A stretch of 64,000 nucleotides of DNA from positions 224,001 to 288,000 of the forward strand of contig CAVUWD010000016.1 in the NCBI GenBank assembly GCA_963745025.1. The letters are read 5' to 3'. The DNA comes from an uncultured delta proteobacterium (GTDB taxonomy: Bacteria; Desulfobacterota; Binatia; JACPRU01). Position 1 is the stretch's first letter. Each line of letters begins with the position of its first letter. Below the pieces are notes generated by a model. It did not search any database, had not been told where the DNA came from, and was given only the letters and a program-made list of their open reading frames with translations. Below, one piece after another: positions 6,828-19,691 of this stretch. Made by a program: the position numbers and the translations under genes.

Positions 6828-8189
6828 TCACGTCGTGTAGGCCGTCTCGCTGTGCTGCGAGAGATCGAGACCCATGCGCTCGTCGTCGATGGGCGCGCGG
6901 AGCGGCGTGATCGCATTGATGATCGTCAGTAGCAGGAAGCTGCCGACACCGCAGAAGACGTAGGTCGCGACCACCGCGATCAGCTGCTTCACCATGAGGC
7001 CGGGGTAACCGTACAAGAGACCGCCGTCGAGCCCGAGCGTGAGGGTCGGGATCGCCGAGTTCACGTCCTTGGTCGCGAACACGCCGGTCAAGAGAGCGCC
7101 GAGCGTCCCGCCGACCATGTGTACGCCGACGACGTCCAACGCATCGTCGTAACCGAAGCGTGCCTTCAAGCTGACGGCGGTGTAACAGATCGCGCCGGCA
7201 AGGCCGCCGATGACGAGGGACGCCATCGGCGTCACGAATCCCGAGGCGGGCGTGACGGCCACCAGGCCGGCGACCGCGCCGGACGCCGCGCCGAGGATCG
7301 TCGGCTTGCCGGATCGTGACCATTCGGCGAACATCCAGCCGAGCGCCGCCGCGGCGGCTGCCGTGTTGGTGTTGACGAAGGCGAAGGCGGCGAGCTCGCT
7401 CGAGGAGGTGGCGCTGCCCGCGTTGAACCCGAACCATCCCACCCACAGCAGCGACGCTCCCACGACGCAGAACGGCAGGTTGTGCGGCGGCATCGGCGTC
7501 TCGGGGTAGCCGACGCGCTTGCCGAGGTAGAGCGCGGTCACGAGCGCGGAGACGCCGCTCGAGATGTGAACGACGGTGCCGCCGGCGAAGTCGATGGCGC
7601 CCACCTTGGATGCGATCCAGCCCCCGCCCCAGACCCAATGGGCAAGCGGATTGTAGATGAACGTCGACCAAAGCAGCATGTAGAGCGCAAAGGCGGGGAA
7701 GCGGAGCCGCTCGGCGAACGTCCCGGAGATCAGCGCGGGAGTGATGATCGCAAAGGTCCCCTGGAAGGCGACGAACACCATCTGCGGGATCGTCGGCGCG
7801 GCTGAGTTTGCGGTGCCGAGGATGCCACGCAATCCGAAGTTCGCCGCGCCGCCGACGATGCCGCCGATGTCCGGGCCGAAGGCCATCGAATATCCGAAGA
7901 GCACCCACGTCACGCTGATCAAGGCGGCGCAGAAGAAGCTGTGCATCAGCGTCGACAGCACGTTCTTCGAGCGCACCAGACCGCCGTAGAAGAGCGCGAG
8001 CCCGGGGATCGTCATCATCAGCACGAGCACGGAGCTGGTGAGCATCCACGCGGTGTCGCCGGTGTCGAATTTCGGGGCCGCGGGCGCCGCGGCCTCTTCC
8101 GCCAACGCGGTCGCGGCACTGATCAGAGCGCCGAGGCCACCGGCAGCGGCCACGCGCAGGGCTGTGCTCCGACCATAAAATATTCTCAT
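6828..8189 (-). CDS. amtB: Ammonium transporter AmtB
   Basis: GDTAWML, PGLALFYGGLVRSKN, DFAGGTVVHISSG, LWVGWFGFNAGS, DDALDVVGVH; GGAGGAGG RBS before ATG 8189. Confidence 0.97.
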   Translation of the reverse strand: MRIFYGRSTALRVAAAGGLGALISAATALAEEAAAPAAPKFDTGDTAWMLTSSVLVLMMTIPGLALFYGGLVRSKNVLSTLMHSFFCAALISVTWVLFGYSMAFGPDIGGIVGGAANFGLRGILGTANSAAPTIPQMVFVAFQGTFAIITPALISGTFAERLRFPAFALYMLLWSTFIYNPLAHWVWGGGWIASKVGAIDFAGGTVVHISSGVSALVTALYLGKRVGYPETPMPPHNLPFCVVGASLLWVGWFGFNAGSATSSSELAAFAFVNTNTAAAAAALGWMFAEWSRSGKPTILGAASGAVAGLVAVTPASGFVTPMASLVIGGLAGAICYTAVSLKARFGYDDALDVVGVHMVGGTLGALLTGVFATKDVNSAIPTLTLGLDGGLLYGYPGLMVKQLIAVVATYVFCGVGSFLLLTIINAITPLRAPIDDERMGLDLSQHSETAYTT

Positions 8190-8244
8190 TTTATCCTCCT
8201 CCACCGAGCGGGGGAGGTACAAGAGCGAAAAACCTGGGCTCGCG

Positions 8245-8697
8245 TCAAGAGAACGAGGGCAGCACGGCGCGGCGCAACGCGTCGAGGTCGACCGGTTTCG
8301 AGAAGAATTGGAAGGCGCCGAGTCGGAGCGCGAAGTCTCGGCTCTCGGGATCGGTCTGTCCCGAAAGCACCACGACACGGATTCGTCTGGAGCGGTAGCG
8401 GAAATCGTCACGCAGCCGCCGCAGGACTTCCCAGCCGTTGACGCCGGGCATCTTCAGGTCGAGGACCAGCGCGACCACGTTTTCGCGATCGAGGATCGGC
8501 CAGATCTCGCCACCGTCGTCGACGGGAATGGCGACGTAACCCTCGTTCGTCAGCGCACGCTGCAGGACGAGTCGAATCGTTTCGTCGTCGTCGGCGATGA
8601 GCACGATGGGAGACTCGGGTTGGGGGGCGAGAGAGGGAGCAGGGGAGGAGAGGCCGCGTCGGCGGCTCCCCCTCGCTCTTCCCCTGCTCGGCAGCAT
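8245..8697 (-). CDS. Single-domain response regulator (receiver)
   Basis: VLIADDDETIR, LVLDLKMPGVNG, VVVLSG, FFSKP; start uncertain. Confidence 0.85.
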   Translation of the reverse strand: MLPSRGRARGSRRRGLSSPAPSLAPQPESPIVLIADDDETIRLVLQRALTNEGYVAIPVDDGGEIWPILDRENVVALVLDLKMPGVNGWEVLRRLRDDFRYRSRRIRVVVLSGQTDPESRDFALRLGAFQFFSKPVDLDALRRAVLPSFS

Positions 8698-8704
8698 GGA
8701 AACT

Positions 8705-10451
8705 TCAGGCGGCTGCCCGATTGACGTGGATACCGACCATATCGGGGTAGCCGTGAGCGCCCATCTCGGGACCGTCGAGGCCCTCGAGCTTCCGTCTCCT
8801 CGCTGACGCGGATCGGCGTGATCAGGTCGCTGAGCTTGAACCAGACGTAGGCCATGCAGAAGCCGAAGACGGCCACCACGGCGGCGTCGATCAGCTGCAT
8901 CGACGAGCTGCGACGCGTCGCCGTAGAGCAGGCCGCGCACGCCGTCCGAGCCGTACGCCTTCACCATCGCGTCGCGGACCACGCCGTTCCAGCCCGCGCC
9001 GTACTCTCCCGTTGGCGAAGATGCCGACGGAGATGACGCCCCAGAGGCCGTTGACGCCGTGAACGGAGATCGCGCCGACCGGGTCGTCGACGCCGCGATT
9101 GTCGCAGAAGAAGACGCTGAAGACCACGAGCACGCCGGCGATGACACCGATGATCGCCGCGCCCAGGGGTCGACGAACGCGCAGGGCGCGGTGATCGCCA
9201 CCAGGCCGGCCAGCATGCCGTTGCACATCATCGACGGGATCGGGCTTCATGCCCTTGCCAGCATCATGGTGAGCATCGCGGCCGATCGGCGCCGGTGACG
9301 CTGGCGAGCATCGTGTTGACGACCACGAAGCTGATCCGCAGGTCGGTGCCGGCGAGCGTCGAGCCCGGATTGAACCCGAACCAGCCGAAGGCCAGGATGA
9401 ACGTGCCGAGCGATCGACCATCGGCATGTGGTGGCCGGGCATGGCCTGCGGCTTGCCGTCGACGTACTTGCCGATGCGCGGGCCGATGACGATCGCGCCG
9501 GCCAGGCCGATGACGCCGCCCATCGCGTGCACGACGCCCGAGCCGGCGAAGTCGACCGCGCCGTGGCCGAGGCCCCAGTTGATGCCCGACCTGGGCCAGC
9601 CAGCCGCCGCCCCACACCCAGTTGGCGTAGAGGCAGTAGGGCAGCGCCACCCACAGGCCGTAGAGGCAGAAGTTCTTCCACGCCCAGCGCTCGGCCATCG
9701 CGCCGGTCGGAATCGTGGCGGTGGTGTCCATGAACACCATCATGAAGAAGAACAGCGCCATCACGCTGACGTCGTCACGACGCCGTTCAGGAAGAAGCCC
9801 TTCGTGCCCGATCAGGCCGTATGTGAACACGCCCGTGGCGTTGCCGGCGGCATCGGTGGCCGCGCCGAGTCCCCAGCCGCTGTTCAGCACCGACGTGCCC
9901 GGTCCGAGCGACGAGTACCAGCCCGGCGCCACCGGGCCGTTGAACCAGTTGCCCCAGCCGATCGCGAAGCCGTAGGCCCAGAACGCGAAGCAGCCGAGCG
10001 GGTAGATCATGAAGTTCATGCCGATCGTGTGCGCCGCGTTCTTCGCGCGGCAGAGCCCGGTCTCGACCATGCAGAACCCGGCCTGCATGAACATGACCAG
10101 GAAGCCCGGCGATCAGCACCCACACGATGTTGATCGAGAACAGGTTGTGGGCGATGCGATCGTAGAGGTCGGTCAGCGCCAGCGAGGATGGCACGTCGCC
10201 CTTGCCGTCGCCGGCCGGCGTCGCCCACACTCCCGCGGCCGCGCCGGTCGGATCGGGCCACAGGGGCTTCGCGGGATCGGGGCTCGCCGCCGTGAAGTAG
10301 GTCGGTAGCTGCGGACCAGCCGGAGCCGGCGCGGCCGCGGGTCCTGCTCGGGCGCCTTCTCCTCCGCCGCGAGCCTGCCGGGCGTGCCGGCGAGCAGCGC
10401 GGCGATCCCCAGGGCACCGAGGAATCCGAGCGTCGCTCTCGAATGCTTCAT
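8705..10451 (-). pseudogene. amt: Second ammonium transporter (divergent Amt subfamily) broken by many frameshifts; pseudogene or assembly error
   Basis: Amt motifs spread across all three minus frames: MFMQAGFCMVETG, IPTGAMAER, DFAGSGVVHAMGG, GWFGFNPGS, NGMLAGLVAITAPC, DDPVGAISVHG; ends ...GYPDMVGIHVNRAAA* at 8705. Confidence 0.9.
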
Positions 10452-10482
10452 TGGCTCTCTCCTCCTCTTTTCTCGTGGCGAG

Positions 10483-12086
<1,604 letters not shown>

Positions 12087-12153
12087 GCTGCCCTCCCCAC
12101 CGTCGATCGTTGATCGTGTGCCGCCACTGGATTGGTGCGGTCGATCGACGGTA

Positions 12154-12170
12154 AGCAAGACCAACGCCAG
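12154..12170 (-). promoter_or_regulatory. Sigma54 (-24/-12) promoter for the porin-glnB-amt operon
   Basis: Minus strand CTGGCGTTGGTCTTGCT = GG-N10-GC, about 70 nt upstream of porin ATG. Confidence 0.75.
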
Positions 12171-12278
12171 ATCCCCGGCGATCGGTCGCTTCACGGGATG
12201 CCGTCGATGCCATCGCGGTTTTTTGGGAGTTGGTTCGAGCGGATGACCGGGGATCGTGAGTCGGGGCGCGGAGGACGC

Positions 12279-12313
12279 TGCCCGACAATTCAGCATTGCC
12301 TAGAGAATCGGCG
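12279..12313. promoter_or_regulatory. Tandem NtrC-like enhancer sites
   Basis: TGCCCGACAATTCAGCA and TGCCTAGAGAATCGGCG (TGC-N11-GCA/G) lying between two sigma54 promoters. Confidence 0.45.
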
Positions 12314-12385
12314 GCCTCTCGCGCGCAAGTTCACACCTGACGCGCGACCACTTCGATCGGCAGCACCATTCCGCGCTCGCCTTCG

Positions 12386-12402
12386 TTGGTATTGCCCTTG
12401 CA
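12386..12402 (+). promoter_or_regulatory. Sigma54 (-24/-12) promoter for second P-II operon
   Basis: TTGGTATTGCCCTTGCA = GG-N10-GC. Confidence 0.7.
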
Positions 12403-12629
12403 CCCAAAAACGCGGAGGGTTGACCCGTGAGTCTGAGGATGGATCTGCCGAGGCCCCTCGACGGATTCACAGTTCGACCGAAGACGAGATGCGAGGGCGG
12501 GCGGGCTAATTTCGCAACTCGGTCGCCGTTCTGTTCATGAACCGGAGCTTCTTTCGCCGTCGCGGTCGGACGGTCACCGCACAGTTCCTGAAGCGGGTCG
12601 GTCTCGGCCCGGCCGCCCGGGGCGAGTGC

Positions 12630-12968
12630 GTGAAGAAGGTCGAAGCGATCATCCAGCCGTTCAAGCTGGACGAGGTCAAAGCCGCTCTGGCGGCCGAGGG
12701 CATCCGCGGCATCACGGTCATGGAGGTCCAGGGGTTCGGCCGCCAAAAGGGGCACCCGGATCTCTATCGAGGCGCCGAATACGCCATCGACTTGCGTAAC
12801 AAGATCAAGCTCGAAATTTTCGTTGCTGCGTCTCAAGTGGCCACCGTCTGCAAGACGATCGAGCAGAGCGCCAGGACCGGACGCATCGGCGACGGGAAAA
12901 TCTTCATCAGCCAGGTCGACGAGGTCGTGCGGATTCGCACCGGCGAGCGCGGAACCGAGGCACTGTGA
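12630..12968 (+). CDS. glnK: Second P-II nitrogen regulator
   Basis: [44 protein letters not shown]; GTG start gives the canonical 112 aa. Confidence 0.93.
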   Translation: MKKVEAIIQPFKLDEVKAALAAEGIRGITVMEVQGFGRQKGHPDLYRGAEYAIDLRNKIKLEIFVAASQVATVCKTIEQSARTGRIGDGKIFISQVDEVVRIRTGERGTEAL

Positions 12969-13111
12969 GAATCGCAATCGCGGCGGTGGCCACCGTGGTG
13001 GTGCTGCTCGTCGGCGTCGCCGGGGCGCCTCCGCTGCCCGTGGCTATCGGCGGCCTGGCGGCGTTCGGGTGGATCTGGTGGCGCTCGGGGCGCGGTGCCG
13101 CGAAGCTCTGA
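12965..13111 (+). CDS. 48-aa two-helix membrane protein (below ORF-track cutoff)
   Basis: GTGA overlap with P-II stop; translates MRIAIAAVATVVVLLVGVAGAPPLPVAIGGLAAFGWIWWRSGRGAAKL. Confidence 0.6.
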   Translation: MRIAIAAVATVVVLLVGVAGAPPLPVAIGGLAAFGWIWWRSGRGAAKL

Positions 13112-13135
13112 ACGGAGGCTCGCCCGGCCGGCGCC

Positions 13136-14506
13136 GTGTCAGGCGCCGCGCTTGGCCATCAGGATCCGGCGCCGCAGCGCGAGCACGGTCTCGTCTCGCC
13201 GGATCCAGCAGCGCGTCTCGACGTAGAGCACGCCGCGGCCCGGCCAGTGCTGGACGAGCTCGCCGACCGCGTAGTCTTCGAAGAATCGTCCCCGCCGCTG
13301 CATGCGATTCCCTGCTTGCGGTCTCTTCCGAAATGGGACAATTTCGACAAAGGCAAGTTCGGCATGTCGTTAGAGCTCCGAGAAGAAACGATCGACGCCG
13401 TCCTCCGCGAGGCACGGACGCTTGCGCCTGCAATCGCTCTACCGTCGCGCGACGACTCGGGACGCGAGCTTTCCGTCGCCGAGATGGTGGCGTTCTTCTA
13501 TTCCAAGCATGACGCCGAGAGCCTCCGGGCGGCGGCCGTCGCCCGACGCGGGCGGCGTGCCTTCGATCTCGAGACGTTCTCGCCCCTCTACCTGACCAAT
13601 ACCTGCGACTCCGAATGCAAGATGTGCGGAATGCGGAGGGACAATCGGGAGCTCGAGCGGCAGACCGCGAATCCCGCGGAGATCCAAGGACAGCTCGAGA
13701 TCCTTTGGGCACGAGGAGTCTTGGCGGTCGCGCTGCTCACCGGCGAGTACCAGCGCGATACCCGACAGTGGTCGATCGCGCTGACGCGCGACGCGCTCCG
13801 CCGGGCGCTCACGCTCGGCTTCCGCCACATATTGATCAACATCGGGTCGCTCGACGAGCGCGAGCTCGCGGATCTGCTTGCCGACGTCCCGCGCGGCGCC
13901 GACGGCCGCACGCTGCCCAAGGTGACTCTCTGCACCTTCCAGGAGACCTACGACCGCGAGACCTACCGCCGCTTCATGGGTGACAATCGCGAAAACCCGC
14001 GCGCCGACTTCGAGCGGCGTCTGGAAAACTTCGATCGCGCCGCGCGTGCCGGGATGCGTGTCGTCAATCCCGGCGTGCTGCTCGGTCTGTGTGCCGATCT
14101 CGCCTACGAGCTCACCGCGCTCGCGCTGCACGTTCGCCATCTACTCGCGCTCGGGCTCGAGGTCTACGTGTCGGTGCCGCGCCTGCGCCAAGCCTCCGGC
14201 GCCGAGAACTCGCGCGGTGTGTCCGACGACGAATTCGTCCGGCTCGTGGCGATACTCTCCTTGGGTGTTCCCGAGGCGAAGATCGTCATCACCACGCGGG
14301 AGTCGTCGGAAGTGCAGCGTCGGGTGTTGCCGATGGTGAGCGTGTTGTCGGCGGGCTCGTCGGCGGTCGCGCCCTATACCGAGACGGGAGCGCGCTTCCC
14401 GCTCGAAGCAAGCCAGTTCAAGGTCATCGACCAGCGACCGATCGAAACGATCCTCGCCGAGTACATCGCCGAGGGGGTTCGCTTCGAAAACTACCAAGCG
14501 CCGTAG
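13136..14506 (+). CDS. Radical SAM aromatic amino-acid lyase, NosL-like (tryptophan lyase / 3-methyl-2-indolic acid synthase family)
   Basis: TFSPLYLTNTCDSECKMCGMR, LLTGEY, NIGSL, TLCTFQETYDRETYRRFMG, VNPGVLLGL, SVPRLR, ITTRE, SAGSSAVAPY, SQF..D.R; start uncertain. Confidence 0.85.
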   Translation: MSGAALGHQDPAPQREHGLVSPDPAARLDVEHAAARPVLDELADRVVFEESSPPLHAIPCLRSLPKWDNFDKGKFGMSLELREETIDAVLREARTLAPAIALPSRDDSGRELSVAEMVAFFYSKHDAESLRAAAVARRGRRAFDLETFSPLYLTNTCDSECKMCGMRRDNRELERQTANPAEIQGQLEILWARGVLAVALLTGEYQRDTRQWSIALTRDALRRALTLGFRHILINIGSLDERELADLLADVPRGADGRTLPKVTLCTFQETYDRETYRRFMGDNRENPRADFERRLENFDRAARAGMRVVNPGVLLGLCADLAYELTALALHVRHLLALGLEVYVSVPRLRQASGAENSRGVSDDEFVRLVAILSLGVPEAKIVITTRESSEVQRRVLPMVSVLSAGSSAVAPYTETGARFPLEASQFKVIDQRPIETILAEYIAEGVRFENYQAP

Positions 14507-14551
14507 GCGCGGGTGGACGTCTCGGCCGGGCGGTCGTCCAGCGGATCGGGC

Positions 14552-15910
14552 TCAGGCCTTCATCAGCCGGCGGCGCCGGAGCCGGGTCCGCAGCACGCGG
14601 CCGAGCACGTTTAGGGCCGTCGCGGCATCCATCCTCGGCCACTCCAGGAGCGCCTCCATGACGCTCGCCGGCTTGCGTCCGGGCCTTCGCCAATCCGCGA
14701 TCTGCGTCGGCTTGTAGACCTTCGGCGTGCGCACGAGCGCGGTCGGATCCAGCAGGTCGCCGCGTCGCGCGGCCTCGGCCACCACCGGTACGCCGAGCTT
14801 CTCGCTCGCCGCGCGCACGGCCCGAACATCGATCGCGGGTCGAGCGCCGTCGACTTCCACGCAGAACACCACGTCCGCCGCGCGAATGACCGCGAAGAAG
14901 ACGCGCGAACCGTGCGCCTCCGCCAGATCGTAGCCGCAGTCGAGGATGTCGGCGGGGTAAACGCGCTTGCCGGCGAAATCGGCCACCTCGTCTTGCCGAC
15001 CGAGCAGGTCGATCGCCGGCTCGGGGCGGCCGCAGGCGCAGGGAATCACGCGGATGAAGTCGCGCGTCAGGTAGCGGACGAGCGGCATGGCCTTCGGGCC
15101 GAGGTGGGTGAGCGCGAACACGCCTGGCTCGCCGGGCTCGACCGGCTTCAGCGTTTCGGGATCGAGCACCTCCGCCACGAACAGGCGGGTGTCGAGGTGA
15201 AGCGTTCCCCGCTGGCAGGAGGCGCCGAGGAACAGCGTCTCGTTCGAGCCGTAGATCTCGCGCACCGTGACGCGCCAGTCGCGTTCGACCATGCGTCGCA
15301 TGGCGGCGGGCAGCGGCGCTCCGGCGAGCACCGCCATCTCGAGCGAGTCGAGCTCGCGAGCGGGATCGATGCCGAGCGTCAGCGCGAGCTCCCGGAGCAA
15401 GAACATTTCCAGCGGCAGACAAGCGATGATCTGCGGCCGCAGCGTGCGCAGAAAGTCGAGAGCGCGGGGGAAGGGGACGTCCCAGGAGAGGTTTCCGCAC
15501 GGAATGTGGCAGCCCCCTTGGAGCTGGAGTGCCGACTCGATGCAGAAGGAGATCGGCGCGAAGGAGGGGAAGCGATCGAGGAAGATCTTTCCCGGCGTCC
15601 ACTCGGGAAACCATCGCGCCACCGACTGCCCCATGATCGCGAATTCTTCCTTTCGGTACCAGCAGGCGATGGGCTGTCCCGTCGTTCCCGTCGATTCGTG
15701 ATAGTGCCAGAGTTCTTCGCGCGGCACCGCGAGCATGCCGAACGGCGTCGCCTCGCGGAGATGGTCTTTGCTGGTGACCGGCAAGCGATCGAGGTCGGCG
15801 AGCGAGCGCGCCTCGCTCTTCTTCAAATGCTCGGCGTAGAAGGGTGCGCGGCGCGCAAGCGACACGGTCTCGCGAAGGAGCGCCTCGGCGTCGGGATGGG
15901 TCGCGTACAC
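14552..15910 (-). CDS. Phenylacetate-CoA ligase (PaaK)/IaaL/F390-synthetase-family adenylate-forming enzyme
   Basis: LPVTSKDHLR, HESTGTTGQP P-loop, LAGAP, IYGSNET, MPLVRYLTRD, CACGR, LGRQDE. Confidence 0.88.
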   Translation of the reverse strand: MYATHPDAEALLRETVSLARRAPFYAEHLKKSEARSLADLDRLPVTSKDHLREATPFGMLAVPREELWHYHESTGTTGQPIACWYRKEEFAIMGQSVARWFPEWTPGKIFLDRFPSFAPISFCIESALQLQGGCHIPCGNLSWDVPFPRALDFLRTLRPQIIACLPLEMFLLRELALTLGIDPARELDSLEMAVLAGAPLPAAMRRMVERDWRVTVREIYGSNETLFLGASCQRGTLHLDTRLFVAEVLDPETLKPVEPGEPGVFALTHLGPKAMPLVRYLTRDFIRVIPCACGRPEPAIDLLGRQDEVADFAGKRVYPADILDCGYDLAEAHGSRVFFAVIRAADVVFCVEVDGARPAIDVRAVRAASEKLGVPVVAEAARRGDLLDPTALVRTPKVYKPTQIADWRRPGRKPASVMEALLEWPRMDAATALNVLGRVLRTRLRRRRLMKA

Positions 15911-15915
15911 GGGCG

Positions 15916-17613
15916 TCAGAACCGCGCCCAGAGCGGCGTCGGGTGAGGCGGTAACGTGTCGACGACGACGTCGAACTGGGCGAGCAGCGTTCCCTCCGCC
16001 TGCCGCAGAGCCGCGAGCGAGACGTTGTAGTCGATCAGCGCCTGGATCTCGGCGGCGCGCGCCGCGGTGACTCGCTGCTGGAAGTCCAGAATGTCCTTGG
16101 TCGTCGCCAGGCCGACGTCGTAGCGCTTCTTCTGCTGCTCGAGGTTTTCCTCGGCGAGCTCACGTGCGAGGCGCGTGACGGTGATGCGTTTCGAGTTCGA
16201 GCGCACGTTGCCGATGGCTTTCCGCGCCTCGAGCGTGACGTTGGCGAGGAGCTGGCGATAGGAGAGCTCACCACGACGGAGGTCGATCTGGCTCTGGACG
16301 TATTCCGCCTCGGCGGTCGTGTTGCCGAGCGGGACCGTGAAGGACAGGCCTCCCGAATAGGAATTGAAGTCGTCGCTCGCCAGCCGATCGAGGCTCTTGC
16401 CGTAATCCCCGGTGAACGGCGTGACCACCGTCTGGCCGGTCTGCGGATCGGTCTGCGGAACGCCGCGTCCCGACAGACCGTTGAGCCCGTAGCTGGCGTT
16501 CAGGTTCAGGCCGGGTAAGAGATTGTTGCGGTTGATCTTGGCGAGAATCTTGCGGTTCTCGATGTCGTAGCGCGCCTGCAGCACCTCCGGACGTCGCTCG
16601 ACCGCGTCGACCAGGATCTCCTGCTCGTCTACGGTGACGTCGCGAACCTCTGGGCTGTCGATCGGCTCGATCGGTCGGGGCACGAAGGCACCCTCGGGGT
16701 TGCGCTGGAGGAGCAGGCGAAGGCTGTCGGACGCGATGCTCACCGCGTTCTCGGCACTGATCACTCGCGCCTCGCGGCTCGCCGCGTCCGCTTCCGCCTC
16801 CTTGACGGCGACCGGCGGAAGAGTGCCCGCGCGGACACGGGCCTCGTTCTCCCGGAGGAGCGTCTGCGCGAGCCGCAGGCCATCCTGCTCCGCCTTGAGG
16901 TTTTCCCTTGCCTGCACGACGCCCCAGTAGGCCTCGACGACCTGCCGCACGAGCGCCACGGCCCGAGACAGGTACTGGTAGTAGGCGACGCTCGAGTTCG
17001 CCTCCGCGGAGCGCACGAGTAGGATCGTCAGGTCGATGCCGAAGTTCTTGAGCAGCGGCTGCGACACGCTGAACAAGACAGTCGGAAGGTACTGGGGGCG
17101 CAGGCCGTAAAACCGCGAGTTGGTATCCGTCTCCGTGGAGCTGCCGGCGATGGTGAACGTCGCTCCCGAGCGCAGCAGCTTTTGCAGCGACAGTGCGTAG
17201 ACGTAGTCTTTCTCGCGGAGCACTTGCGCGCCCTGCAGAACGGAGCTCGCAGGAACGACCGAGCGCTCGACGGTTCCGCTCGCCTGGAACGTCGGGTCGA
17301 AAATGCCGTTGGCGCGATCGACGTCGGCGCGCGCGAACTCGGGTCCGAGGCGCTCGACGGCGATTCCCGGATTGTTCTGGAGCGCAGCCGCAACTGCCTC
17401 GCGCAACGACAGGCGCTCGAGCGTATCGTCGCGGCTCTCGAGGTAGGCTCGTGGCTCGGGCTTCGGCTGGATGCTTTCGCTCGTCCACTGCTCGCGGAGC
17501 TGCTTCGGGAAGGAGGGAATGGGGAAGTCGTCGCTGGCCGATCCGGCGAAGACTGCGGTCGGAACGATCGAGCAGACGAGCAGCGCGGCGCCGATGACGA
17601 CGAATCGGTTCAT
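15916..17613 (-). CDS. TolC-family outer-membrane efflux protein
   Basis: Signal peptide, LSLREAVAAALQNNP, SQPLLKNFG, VVEAYW, RYDVGLATTKDILD; ATG 17613 with GAGG RBS. Confidence 0.9.
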   Translation of the reverse strand: MNRFVVIGAALLVCSIVPTAVFAGSASDDFPIPSFPKQLREQWTSESIQPKPEPRAYLESRDDTLERLSLREAVAAALQNNPGIAVERLGPEFARADVDRANGIFDPTFQASGTVERSVVPASSVLQGAQVLREKDYVYALSLQKLLRSGATFTIAGSSTETDTNSRFYGLRPQYLPTVLFSVSQPLLKNFGIDLTILLVRSAEANSSVAYYQYLSRAVALVRQVVEAYWGVVQARENLKAEQDGLRLAQTLLRENEARVRAGTLPPVAVKEAEADAASREARVISAENAVSIASDSLRLLLQRNPEGAFVPRPIEPIDSPEVRDVTVDEQEILVDAVERRPEVLQARYDIENRKILAKINRNNLLPGLNLNASYGLNGLSGRGVPQTDPQTGQTVVTPFTGDYGKSLDRLASDDFNSYSGGLSFTVPLGNTTAEAEYVQSQIDLRRGELSYRQLLANVTLEARKAIGNVRSNSKRITVTRLARELAEENLEQQKKRYDVGLATTKDILDFQQRVTAARAAEIQALIDYNVSLAALRQAEGTLLAQFDVVVDTLPPHPTPLWARF

Positions 17614-17731
17614 GGATCCTCGCCGCTTATGCGCCACCTCCAGGGAAGTCAAACCAGAGGGTTGCAATTGTCTTCGCATGGCCTTTTCCTTATGTTTGGG
17701 GCGGTGACGAGGACCAGCGCCGCGAGGGGCC

Positions 17732-17974
17732 GCAGCGTACGCTACCAACGGGCTCTTCTTCGGTGAGTTCCTGGCAGGCCGAGAATTGCTGCTCGAGTAC
17801 ATCGAGCGGATCGAGATCATCCGCGGACCGGTATCGGCGCTCTATGCTCAGGCCGTCGCAGATCGGCGTGCGGGCCTCGATCGTCACCGCGTCGCCGCCA
17901 ACCGACGGGTCGAAGATCAGTTGGGTGTGAATTTCGTACCCGCCTTCCGTCACGACGTGGAGATCCGCGAGTGA
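17732..17974 (+). pseudogene. Remnant of TonB-dependent receptor plug domain
   Basis: Reads AAYATNGLFFGEFLAGRELLLEYIERIEIIRGPVSALY, then loses similarity. Confidence 0.6.
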
Positions 17975-17996
17975 AAGGCTCTGTCCTGATCGTTTC

Positions 17997-19691
17997 GTGA
18001 GCCCGCTCGCTTCATCATCGAGCTCGATGCCGGCCGCCCCCGCCCGCGCTCGAACCGCGGTGTTTGGCCGCAACCCTCGAGGACTCGGTTTGCGCGCGAA
18101 GTTTCTGATGCTGGCGAGCATCGGTTTCATCGTCAGCGGCGTGGTGTTCGGCTGGGCATTCTCGCGACAGTACCAGACCCTGCTGCGCTCGGAGTTCCAA
18201 AAGCGCGGCGAAACGCTGGCGCGTGGCCTGGCAGCCAACGGTCGGCTCGACGTCTGGGCGGAGAACAAAGAACGGCTGGCGCGCCTGGCGGAGAGCGCTC
18301 GCGAGGAAGCCGACGTGGTGGCCGCATCGGTCTATAACGCGCGCGGCGAGGTGTTGGCCCGCGTCGAGAAGGTTCGTGGCGCCGCGGCAGAGCGGGCGCC
18401 GGTCGTGCCCAGTTTCATCGCCGTGGAGGCGAAGACGCTGCCGGACGGAGCGCGCGCGCTTTCCGTCCTCGCGCCGGTGGAGCTGCAAGTCGAAGCCGGC
18501 CGCGTTCCCGACGAGTCCGCCGCGCGGCTCGGCGGATCGAGCGGCAAGCCGATGCGCGCCGAGGCGCTCGGCGCGATCGAGATCGTGTTCGGCCTGCGCG
18601 CCGTCGAGCAGCGTATCGCCGACGTACAGGCCACGACGATGACGATGACCGCGGGAATCGCCGGCATCGGCATCGTGCTCGTGTTCTGGCTCTCGCGCGT
18701 TTTCGTGGTGCCGATCGAGCGCATGGCCGTCGCGGCTCGGCGGATCGCCGCCGGCGACTTCCGCGGGAGTGCGACGGTCCGCCGCAGCGACGAGCTCGGC
18801 GAGCTCGCGGAGGCGTTCAACACGATGACCACGACTCTCGCGGAACGCGAGGAGGAGCTCCGCCGCGTGAATCAGTCGCTCGAGCACAAGGTGCGCGAGC
18901 GCACTTCCGAGCTCCAGATCAAGCAATCGGAGCGAATCGCCGCCCACGTGGAGCTCGAGCGCGCGAGTCGGTTGAAGTTCGAATTTCTCGCCAACATGTC
19001 GCATGAGCTGCGCACGCCGCTGCATGCGGTGAATGGCTTCTCGGAGCTCTTGCTCGAGCAGAGCTCCGGGCCGCTCGTACCGAAGCAGCAGCGATACGTC
19101 GAGAACATTCTCGCCAACGGCAAGCACCTGCTCCAGCTGATCAACGATATCCTCGACCTCTCGAAGATCGAGGCCGGACGGATGGATCTGCGGCTCGAGG
19201 AGTTCTCGCTCCAGCAAACGATCGAGAGCGCCGTCAGCGTGATCGAGCCGCTCGCCCAGAAGAAGGGGCTCGCGATCGAGGTGTCGATCGAATCCGGGCT
19301 CGATCCCGTGCGGCTGGACCGGGGCAAGACGAAGCAGATTCTGTACAACCTGATGAGTAACGCCGTGAAGTTCACCGATGCGGGACGAATCACGATCTCC
19401 GCGGCGCGTGGCGGCCGGGGGCGGGGAGGGGTGGAGGTGGTCGTCGCCGATACGGGCATCGGCATCCGCGCCGACGACCAGAAGCGGATCTTTCGCGAGT
19501 TCGAGCAGGTGGATGGCGCCCATTCGCGAAAATACGAGGGAACCGGTCTCGGCCTCTCGTTGACGCGCCGCCTCGTGGAGCTTCAGGGAGGGAGCATTCG
19601 CCTGGAGAGCGAGCTCGGCCGCGGCAGCCGATTCATCGTTCGACTGCCGGCGAACCCGGAGGCGCCGCGAAACGGAAGCGAGGGGAGGTAG
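17997..19691 (+). CDS. HAMP-domain sensor histidine kinase
   Basis: 2 TM, DELGELAEAFNTM HAMP, FLANMSHELRTPL H-box, NLMSNAVKFT, DTGIGI, GTGLGL. Confidence 0.95.
   Translation: MSPLASSSSSMPAAPARARTAVFGRNPRGLGLRAKFLMLASIGFIVSGVVFGWAFSRQYQTLLRSEFQKRGETLARGLAANGRLDVWAENKERLARLAESAREEADVVAASVYNARGEVLARVEKVRGAAAERAPVVPSFIAVEAKTLPDGARALSVLAPVELQVEAGRVPDESAARLGGSSGKPMRAEALGAIEIVFGLRAVEQRIADVQATTMTMTAGIAGIGIVLVFWLSRVFVVPIERMAVAARRIAAGDFRGSATVRRSDELGELAEAFNTMTTTLAEREEELRRVNQSLEHKVRERTSELQIKQSERIAAHVELERASRLKFEFLANMSHELRTPLHAVNGFSELLLEQSSGPLVPKQQRYVENILANGKHLLQLINDILDLSKIEAGRMDLRLEEFSLQQTIESAVSVIEPLAQKKGLAIEVSIESGLDPVRLDRGKTKQILYNLMSNAVKFTDAGRITISAARGGRGRGGVEVVVADTGIGIRADDQKRIFREFEQVDGAHSRKYEGTGLGLSLTRRLVELQGGSIRLESELGRGSRFIVRLPANPEAPRNGSEGR

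Follow-up and report, generated by a model that had tools for sequence, protein, structure and literature searches.

The DNA analysed here (the window: 64,000 nucleotides (nt) of contig CAVUWD010000016.1, from an uncultured member of the class Binatia whose genome is called G000 below) carries three neighbouring open reading frames (ORFs), at 13136..14506 on the plus strand and at 14552..15910 and 15916..17820 on the minus strand. A preliminary description read them as a NosL-like radical S-adenosylmethionine (SAM) enzyme, an aryl-acid adenylating ligase and a TolC channel, which together would make, activate and export an indole acid. Based on the profile, structural, phylogenetic and gene-context comparisons presented here, lyase and ligase form a two-enzyme module that is conserved in Binatia, and our preferred reading, to which we give a probability of roughly 0.55, is that this module feeds a lipid or polyene pathway and that the link with TolC is secondary. 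To our knowledge, the chemistry of NosL, which converts tryptophan into MIA (3-methyl-2-indolic acid), is known only from thiopeptide antibiotic pathways. The features in question are the following.

13364..14506, plus strand: radical SAM aromatic amino acid lyase of the NosL branch, 380 residues, with the ATG start that fits its homologs
13136..14506, plus strand: the same lyase ORF in its longest form, from the ORF list
14507..14551, no strand: convergent intergenic gap of 45 nt between the stop codons of lyase and ligase, from their coordinates
14552..15910, minus strand: PaaK-like (short ANL) aryl-acid adenylating ligase, 452 residues, convergent on the lyase, with a GTG start at 15910 and an AMP-binding domain
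15916..17613, minus strand: TolC-family outer membrane channel, 565 residues, 5 nt upstream of the ligase, with two OEP repeats and a signal-peptide-like start
15916..17820, minus strand: the same TolC ORF in its longest form, from the ORF list

Both short distances agree with those first reported, the 45 nt between the two stop codons as well as the 5 nt from the TolC stop codon (15916-15918) to the GTG start of the ligase.

Identity of the lyase and the ligase

The assignment of the first gene to the NosL family holds. The protein combines the Radical_SAM and BATS domains of Pfam, and the NosL branch comes first in both profile and structure comparisons. Among NCBIfam profiles it scores 273.5 bits against TIGR04158, the profile of the NosL/NocL MIA synthases (cut-off 400), 157.7 against ThiH (TIGR02351; cut-off 380) and 111 against HydG; in the PDB, a single-sequence search gives 255 bits for NosL (E 6e-75), 105 for ThiH and 98 for HydG, and a family profile gives 341 for NosL, 167 for HydG and 125 for ThiH, the closest entries being NosL 4R33 and 6HTK (255-341 bits). 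A relative from clade II (see below) reaches 226.8 bits against TIGR04158, whereas the outgroup lyases exceed its cut-off (580 bits at locus L090, 553 in Amycolatopsis L092 and 457 in Nitrospira L091). Judged by sequence, the enzyme belongs to the NosL branch and not to ThiH or HydG, and since it falls below the MIA-synthase cut-off while its relatives from Actinobacteria and Nitrospira pass, it is a sister subfamily to the MIA synthases.

Every one of the 14 aligned homologs has the three cysteines of the radical SAM motif CX3CX2C (C81, C85, C88), and R312 and Q318 are likewise invariant (14/14), R312 being the equivalent of R323 of Streptomyces actuosus NosL, the substrate-amine arginine (PMC9046217). 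The same source gives the primary markers of tyrosine over tryptophan as a one-residue insertion in beta8 and an arginine at the position of ThiH R306 (PMC9046217). Across this segment the window's lyase aligns with NosL without a gap and has a glutamine opposite the glutamine of NosL at +6 after the conserved arginine; HydG needs inserted residues on the same segment and has an arginine at +6. Both selection markers are in the NosL (tryptophan-type) state. The enzyme is probably, on these markers, a NosL-branch lyase that uses tryptophan, and we lean slightly towards a tryptophan-derived indole acid as its product. Public homologs of the lyase and of the ligase come from metagenome-assembled genomes named Candidatus Binatia, Binatota or 'Deltaproteobacteria bacterium', and the only labels they carry are '2-iminoacetate synthase', 'MIA synthase' and 'phenylacetate-CoA ligase family'. 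Neither the window nor the Binatia loci show a thiopeptide context (YcaO, a NosN-like HemN-type radical SAM enzyme, or NosI, NosJ and NosK); such a context is present at the outgroup locus L090, as a YcaO gene and a HemN-like gene.

The second gene encodes an aryl-acid adenylating, PaaK-like enzyme, as first described: it has an AMP-binding domain (PF00501), and short ANL relatives are its best matches among profiles and PDB structures alike. The NCBIfam matches are BagE/FevW (155 bits), PaaK (TIGR02155; 138.6, cut-off 646.3), the DVU_1553 family (99) and FlxY (86), all far below the respective cut-offs; the structural ones are PaaK 9s3l (157 bits), AjiA1 6wuq (149) and the PaaK-like ligase 6siw (147), solved PaaKs ranging from 105 to 157 bits. 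The P-loop is intact (STGTTGQP) and fits both the S/T-G-T-T-G motif and the short PaaK-like architecture of 452 residues; from motif and architecture, we class the protein as a short PaaK-like adenylate-forming enzyme. Some aryl-acid adenylating relatives form esters or amides without CoA. No significant similarity (E 0.78) is found between the ligase and the ANL gene that follows the lyase in Amycolatopsis L092, in the position of NosI, and we propose its relation to NosI as a functional analogy only.

A role as a catabolic PaaK was considered and rejected. The window's ligase belongs with PaaK, the phenylacetate-CoA ligase, to the short ANL fold family, but differs from it in scoring far under the cut-off and in having no paa operon context; a true PaaK (672.7 bits, above the cut-off of 646.3) lies together with PaaA (516.4 bits) on another contig of G000 (C6, 343235-346561). 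To the earlier statement that no other paa catabolic genes are present, this pair elsewhere in the genome has to be added.

Conservation of the lyase-ligase pair

Both genes were sought in an even set of 301 genomes of the class (E<=1e-30 for the lyase, E<=1e-50 for ligase orthologs). The lyase occurs in 61 of them and the ligase ortholog in 63; 59 genomes hold both, two the lyase only, four the ligase only and 236 neither, so that both are found in 59 of the 65 holders of either. The two lyase-only genomes are 61% (G162) and 78% (G173) complete. Where the genes share a contig (n=42), the gap between them is at most 500 nt in 27 cases (17 on the same strand and 10 on opposite strands), 0.5-5 kb in four, 5-50 kb in ten and above 50 kb in one (505 kb); in the remaining 17 double holders they are on separate contigs of fragmented assemblies. 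Ligase orthologs are thus linked to NosL homologs in occurrence (59/65) and in position (27/42), a linkage on which the preliminary description had staked its proposal.

A second set consisted of 76 lyase loci from all GTDB species, with 8-kb flanks. At 31 of these the ligase is the direct upstream neighbour on the lyase's strand, at 13 it is found on the locus's opposite strand, at one (Nitrospira) it lies 2.6 kb upstream, and at the other 31 it has no match within the locus; several of the latter are cut by a contig end or have the ligase beyond the flank, as at L042, where it is 13 kb away. Close pairs occur in convergent, divergent and co-directional orientation, and the adjacency has survived at least three rearrangements. 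Orthologs separate cleanly from paralogs: in five genomes (G006, G015, G023, G031 and G035) the window's ligase finds its best match in the copy that adjoins the lyase or lies near it (5/5, 299-816 bits), and no further paralog exceeds 111 bits. Both gene trees contain clades I and II, with support in the Shimodaira-Hasegawa-like approximate likelihood ratio test (SH-aLRT) of 93 and 95 for the lyase and of 100 and 100 for the ligase, and in both the family of the window is a 99-supported subclade of clade II. The two trees mirror each other, and the genes have co-diverged. The pairing pattern is consistent across seven families, and within the window's own family the genes are 21-91 nt apart in six of seven genomes and 3.6 kb apart in the seventh (G001). 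Fused lyase-ligase proteins were not found among longer proteins at E<=1e-20, which is weak evidence. We consider it very probable that the lyase and the ligase are functionally coupled; the make-and-activate half of the earlier proposal is well supported by co-occurrence, synteny and co-divergence, despite the opposite strands of the two genes here.

The two genes are not intact neighbours everywhere. In G001, which belongs to the same genus as the window's genome, a gene for a protein of 1131 residues with zinc-ribbon, adenylate/guanylate cyclase, AAA (STAND-like) and TPR parts is inserted between them (L013, 5427-8822). In G004 (C11, 27450-30179; loci L020 and L063) lyase and ligase are each in two pieces, each with an in-frame TGA, and this broken pair may reflect joint decay or long-read assembly errors.

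Pairs of this kind exist outside Binatia as well. In nosiheptide biosynthesis, NosI adenylates MIA, the product of NosL, and loads it onto the carrier NosJ (PMC5585349), a precedent that had been cited correctly. The Binatia pair resembles the NosL/NosI/NosJ system in having a NosL-branch lyase with the radical SAM cysteines, the conserved arginine, a glutamine at +6 and no beta8 insertion, and in the pairing of a lyase gene with an adenylating-enzyme gene (PMC5585349). It differs in that its lyase is below the TIGR04158 cut-off and its ligase is PaaK-like, that neither thiopeptide genes (YcaO, HemN-like NosN) nor a recognised carrier protein lie near it, and that its context is one of lipid clusters in a Gram-negative-type uncultured phylum. 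In Amycolatopsis L092, an ANL ligase with no relation to that of the window comes after the above-cut-off lyase, and a tryptophan halogenase comes next. In a Nitrospira sp. metagenome-assembled genome (L091, 4514-8972), a PaaK-like ligase of the DVU_1553 family (115 bits), a HemN-like radical SAM enzyme, a methyltransferase and the lyase lie on one strand. Separate ligase lineages have been recruited beside NosL-type lyases, and this presence of different lineages next to such lyases supports consecutive action of the two enzymes. The ORFs annotated at L091 include no YcaO gene, and the set found there resembles NosI/NosN/NosL outside a thiopeptide context.

Lipid and polyene clusters around the pair

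The gene types within 8 kb of the lyase were counted at 29 loci of clade I, 28 loci of the other families of clade II and six loci of the window's family.

LPG_synthase_TM: clade I 27/29; clade II, other families 11/28; window's family 0/6
B12-binding radical SAM enzyme (TIGR04072-like): clade I 16/29; clade II, other families 12/28; window's family 0/6
Deacetylase-like gene: clade I 0/29; clade II, other families 15/28; window's family 0/6
Ketosynthase (KS): clade I 2/29; clade II, other families 11/28; window's family 0/6
Chain length factor (CLF): clade I 2/29; clade II, other families 11/28; window's family 0/6
Ketoreductase (KR): clade I 4/29; clade II, other families 9/28; window's family 0/6

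The operon of clade I runs in the order ligase, lyase, LPG_synthase_TM (HpnL-like, flippase-like), and is flanked by an LpxL-like acyltransferase, B12-binding radical SAM enzymes, a methyltransferase, pieces of hot-dog dehydratases, a pyridoxal phosphate-dependent decarboxylase and a FADH2-halogenase-like gene. Clade II loci outside the window's family have a FabF-like KS with CLF, a FabG/FlxB-like reductase, a B12-binding radical SAM enzyme (TIGR04072, 395.6 bits against a cut-off of 360), a lipid-kinase-like gene, an HpnN/MMPL-type transporter, a deacetylase-like gene and LPG_synthase_TM. Among the 301 genomes, the TIGR04072-like gene occurs in 43 of the 59 pair-holders versus 12 of the 242 others. 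The window's own genome holds a cluster of this type on contig C19 (246000-266000; L099), with GT2, ABC, methyltransferase and GT1-like genes, a benzoate-CoA/FadD22-like ligase, KS, CLF, a LolA-like gene, a lipoprotein, an HpnN-like MMPL transporter, a deacetylase-like gene and LPG_synthase_TM; an LpxL-like gene and a B12-binding radical SAM enzyme are found on contig C13.

This gene set matches that of two known cluster types. With aryl polyene (APE) clusters, the loci of the relatives and the C19 cluster share KS/CLF, KR, hot-dog dehydratases, a SAM methyltransferase, an LpxL-like/lysophospholipid acyltransferase, a glycosyltransferase, LolA-like and lipoprotein genes and an RND/MMPL transporter, and the first step of the APE pathway is the adenylation of 4-hydroxybenzoate by ApeH, which loads it onto an acyl carrier protein (ACP) (PMC8253772). 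The known APE starters (4-hydroxybenzoate), however, come from chorismate, with no radical SAM lyase involved; the Binatia clusters add B12-binding radical SAM enzymes, LPG_synthase_TM and a polysaccharide-deacetylase-like gene; and none of the cluster genes is in the window itself, nor within 8 kb at any of the six loci of its family. With ladderane-type and Desulfotalea clusters resembling type II fatty acid synthesis (FASII-like), as described for Kuenenia and Desulfotalea, they share a B12-binding radical SAM enzyme at TIGR04072 level, FabF paralogs, a deacetylase-like gene, an MMPL-like transporter and a PaaK/F390-like ligase (PMC2649909). The part of that source drawn on here mentions no NosL-like lyase, and the products are unknown, so that the comparison is one of context and not of function.

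Beyond the homology, the tryptophan-type markers, the co-occurrence, the synteny and the co-divergence documented above, we infer the substrate, the product, the order of the two steps, the acceptor and the lipid destination as follows. The radical SAM enzyme would bind L-tryptophan like NosL and yield an indole-2-carboxylic acid of the MIA type. The PaaK-like ligase would adenylate the acid made by the lyase and hand it over to a carrier protein or a lipid-linked acceptor, and the activated acid would serve as the aromatic starter or cap in a membrane-lipid pathway, aryl-polyene or ladderane-like, of the type II fatty acid synthase/polyketide synthase (FAS/PKS) kind. In the window's family the pair would have become detached from the lipid cluster, now on C19 of the same genome, and have settled beside an older TolC-serA neighbourhood. 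We regard it as fairly probable that the product of lyase and ligase goes into a lipid or polyene.

The best surviving alternative, which we nonetheless consider unlikely, is that both enzymes belong to the same pathway but catalyse non-consecutive steps. The ligase would then be a generic cluster part, acting on a polyenoic, fatty or benzoic acid or anchoring the chain, the lyase would act otherwise, for instance as the source of a small fragment or on an amino acid bound to a lipid, which it would modify, and the genes would travel together as members of one pathway. PaaK/F390-like ligases do occur in the FASII-like clusters of anammox bacteria and Desulfotalea, where they have been proposed to act in attachment to glycerol (PMC2649909); ligases of the pair match the DVU_1553-family and FlxY profiles at 86-122 bits, and distances of 5-50 kb between the two genes are frequent in clade II (10/42 genomes). 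Yet where the cluster has been broken up, in the window's family, it is exactly the lyase and the ligase that stay together at the short distances given above (3.6 kb in G001), and 17/17 of the sampled clade I genomes with a one-contig gap of at most 500 nt have them side by side on one strand. NosL-type lyases moreover adjoin adenylating enzymes outside Binatia too, and the co-occurrence of the pair (59/65) is tighter than its co-occurrence with the cluster marker (43/59).

Several points weigh against a module that feeds a lipid pathway. With respect to chemistry, the features deciding which C-C bond breaks could not be pinpointed according to the source of the markers itself (PMC9046217), and since the lyase remains under the 400-bit cut-off of TIGR04158 its reaction may differ from MIA synthesis. 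PaaK/F390-like ligases are regular in ladderane-type clusters, for which no NosL-like gene is reported in the portion of the account consulted (PMC2649909), so that the substrate of the PaaK-like ligase may be a different acid. The C19 cluster carries its own benzoate-CoA-ligase/FadD22-like gene, a type that is found within 8 kb of the lyase at 6/28 clade II loci. Beside the pair, neither a carrier protein nor an acceptor gene was identified; the small ORFs adjoining the clade I operon look like pieces of hot-dog dehydratases and not like ACPs, and no ACP was identified there. As to distribution, 16 pair-holders have no TIGR04072-like match at threshold and, conversely, 12 genomes that lack the pair carry such a gene, while four genomes hold the ligase only (G055, 99% complete; G159; G225, 98% complete; and G229), the ligase of G055 lying 506 nt from a contig end, so that its lyase may be unassembled. 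One of the 59 double holders (G182) is unpublished, and leaving it out gives 58/64; related genomes are not independent, and the co-occurrence counts overstate significance. Finally, the 5-27 nt spacing between TolC and the ligase in four genomes suggests co-transcription, which we treat as incidental.

TolC, the surrounding genes and implications

The TolC gene starts at the methionine of 17613, as first described, for a signal-peptide-like N-terminus begins there. The protein shares the two OEP repeats and the signal peptide with TolC-family channels; it differs in scoring below all NCBIfam TolC cut-offs (119.5 versus 225), in having no inner-membrane pump or adaptor gene adjoining it and in a distribution independent of the pair. 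TolC homologs (E<=1e-40, near full length) are present in 191 of the 301 genomes, a tally that includes four unpublished ones (G086, G182, G207 and G212), and they are common in families without the pair (48/49 genomes in f8, 7/7 in f19, 5/5 in f15 and 3/3 in f5). In G023, TolC adjoins serA as in the window, with neither lyase nor ligase alongside; in G004 and G005 it lies away from the pair, beside an O-methyltransferase and GTP cyclohydrolase I; and in G006, where the pair is next to serA, it was not found with the window's TolC as query. Only in G000, G001, G002 and G003 does TolC adjoin the ligase, on one strand and with gaps of 5, 8, 11 and 27 nt. Co-transcription of TolC and ligase is likely here, but TolC is probably not a dedicated part of the module, and in the simplest history a TolC-serA neighbourhood that already existed in one sublineage received the pair as a new neighbour.

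Against this background, the full make, activate and export scheme appears improbable. It would have the ligase form a CoA thioester or an amino-acid amide, an auxin-like or signal molecule, that leaves through TolC, the pair having been re-purposed from lipids in the window's family. In its favour are the absence of lipid genes within 8 kb at that family's loci, the close one-strand spacing of TolC and ligase in the four genomes just named, and the fact that the nearest solved or curated relatives of the ligase are aryl-acid adenylating enzymes. Export via TolC is disfavoured by the independent distribution of the channel, pairless families f8, f19 and f15 included, by its position elsewhere (G004, G005) or without the pair (G023), by the failure to find it, with the query used, in the pair-holding G006 and by the lack of an adjacent pump or adaptor; the window's family, besides, keeps the lipid cluster elsewhere, with a TIGR04072 gene in 5/7 of its genomes plus G000. 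An auxin-like secreted signal is disfavoured because the pair is embedded in other Binatia in type II FAS/PKS-like lipid/polyene clusters with their own MMPL/LolA-like export genes and because G000 keeps such a cluster.

A further reading, which has very little left to recommend it, makes the radical SAM enzyme the organism's ThiH-type tyrosine lyase, supplying dehydroglycine for thiazole, with the adjacency of the ligase irrelevant. G000 has ThiG (386 bits) yet no ThiO above the cut-off (best 134 bits, covering profile positions 1-221 only), no second ThiH/HydG-like gene was found in that genome, and many homologs are publicly labelled '2-iminoacetate synthase'. We nevertheless reject this role on four grounds: the ThiH score of 157.7 bits against a cut-off of 380, the NosL state of both tyrosine-selection markers (PMC9046217), the distribution of ThiG, in 292/301 genomes, as against 61/301 for the lyase, and the lack of any thi gene adjoining the lyase. 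The G000 sites concerned are C5, 903-1637, and C13, 368523-369167, with ThiG found, no ThiO at cut-off and no canonical ThiH.

Little in the way of signals was detected around the three genes. A promoter scan of 12400-18100 returned no promoter-like site, a terminator scan of the same interval returned two overlapping sites, both within the lyase gene, versus 3.3 expected, and the 45-nt convergent gap has no terminator-like site and folds no better than shuffled sequences (z = +0.76). An Rfam scan of 12000-18500 (E<=1) gave a single chance-level snoRNA match and no riboswitch or leader 5' of the lyase. As to expression, 22 sequencing runs were listed, none of them with RNA. That the convergent adjacency is a coincidence between functionally unrelated genes, a caution raised at the outset over the opposite strands and compatible with the lack of a shared promoter and of any terminator or structure detected between the genes, is contradicted by all results on co-occurrence, synteny and co-divergence and is scarcely credible. 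GC content is 0.65-0.68 over 12-18 kb, the same as in the remaining window (about 0.65); there is no compositional break at the locus and so no hint of recent foreign origin.

Upstream of the lyase (6828-12968) lies a nitrogen-regulation neighbourhood, followed by a small conserved ORF.

6828-8411, minus strand: AmtB
About 10483-10820, minus strand: P-II
10845-12296, minus strand: BBP2/OmpL-like porin
12537-12968, plus strand: second P-II gene
13139..13303, minus strand: small conserved ORF of 54 residues between the P-II gene and the lyase, matched in relatives

The small ORF bears on the start of the lyase. Homologs align with the 456-residue lyase ORF only from about residue 70-78, an in-frame ATG is found at 13364, and the conserved ORF occupies 13139-13303 on the opposite strand; the real lyase is for these reasons most likely the 380-residue protein of 13364..14506, rather than one starting at 13136. 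The 54-residue ORF is kept in G001, G002 and G003 (as separate short matches) and matches no Pfam family; in one pairwise comparison it shows a weak likeness, in its N-terminal part and a C-terminal motif, to a MaoC-like protein of G005 (E 0.001), and it is possibly a remnant of a MaoC-like hot-dog gene. A hypothetical gene at 12300-12977 on the minus strand was rejected as spurious, the true gene being the second P-II gene. The gene order porin-P-II-lyase is kept within the window's Binatia family. A gene with an ammonium-transporter domain at 8245-10094 (minus strand) is apparently divided among ORFs that differ in frame, at least two in number (9264-10094 and 8245-9231), the latter having a response-regulator receiver domain at its end; either an Amt-receiver fusion with frame changes or assembly errors may lie behind this.

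Within the one library searched, the literature nowhere describes a lipid or polyene cluster with a NosL-type enzyme, and has no paper with both NosL and aryl polyene; among the papers listed there, nothing relevant was found for Binatota with radical SAM or polyene, and 'NosL-like' or 'NosL homolog' led only to a tool for thiopeptide mining and to a copper chaperone, also called NosL, that is unrelated. The NosL sister subfamily, tied to a PaaK-type ligase, is present in about a fifth of the sampled Binatia genomes (61/301), and the pair is usually embedded in lipid/polyene clusters of unknown products. The window also illustrates that a mobile gene pair may come to lie tightly beside TolC by chance. 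We tentatively suggest, as a bolder possibility that we would not yet count on, that some membrane or outer-membrane lipids or polyenes of uncultured Binatia carry a tryptophan-derived indole-carbonyl head or cap, its acid made by the NosL sister and activated by the PaaK-type ligase; this would be the first use of a radical SAM tryptophan lyase outside thiopeptides and a new supply of aromatic units for aryl-polyene or ladderane-like clusters. In the window's lineage, where the pair would have quit the cluster for a transcription unit with TolC next to the nitrogen-regulation genes, it may also yield a free or secreted indole-acid derivative. If the pair does feed a lipid or polyene pathway, a new class of indole-bearing lipids is predicted in a phylum widespread in soil and sediment, the orphan ladderane-like/DVU_1553/TIGR04072 cluster type gains a concrete and testable entry point, and the catalytic territory of the radical SAM aromatic amino acid lyases would be enlarged.

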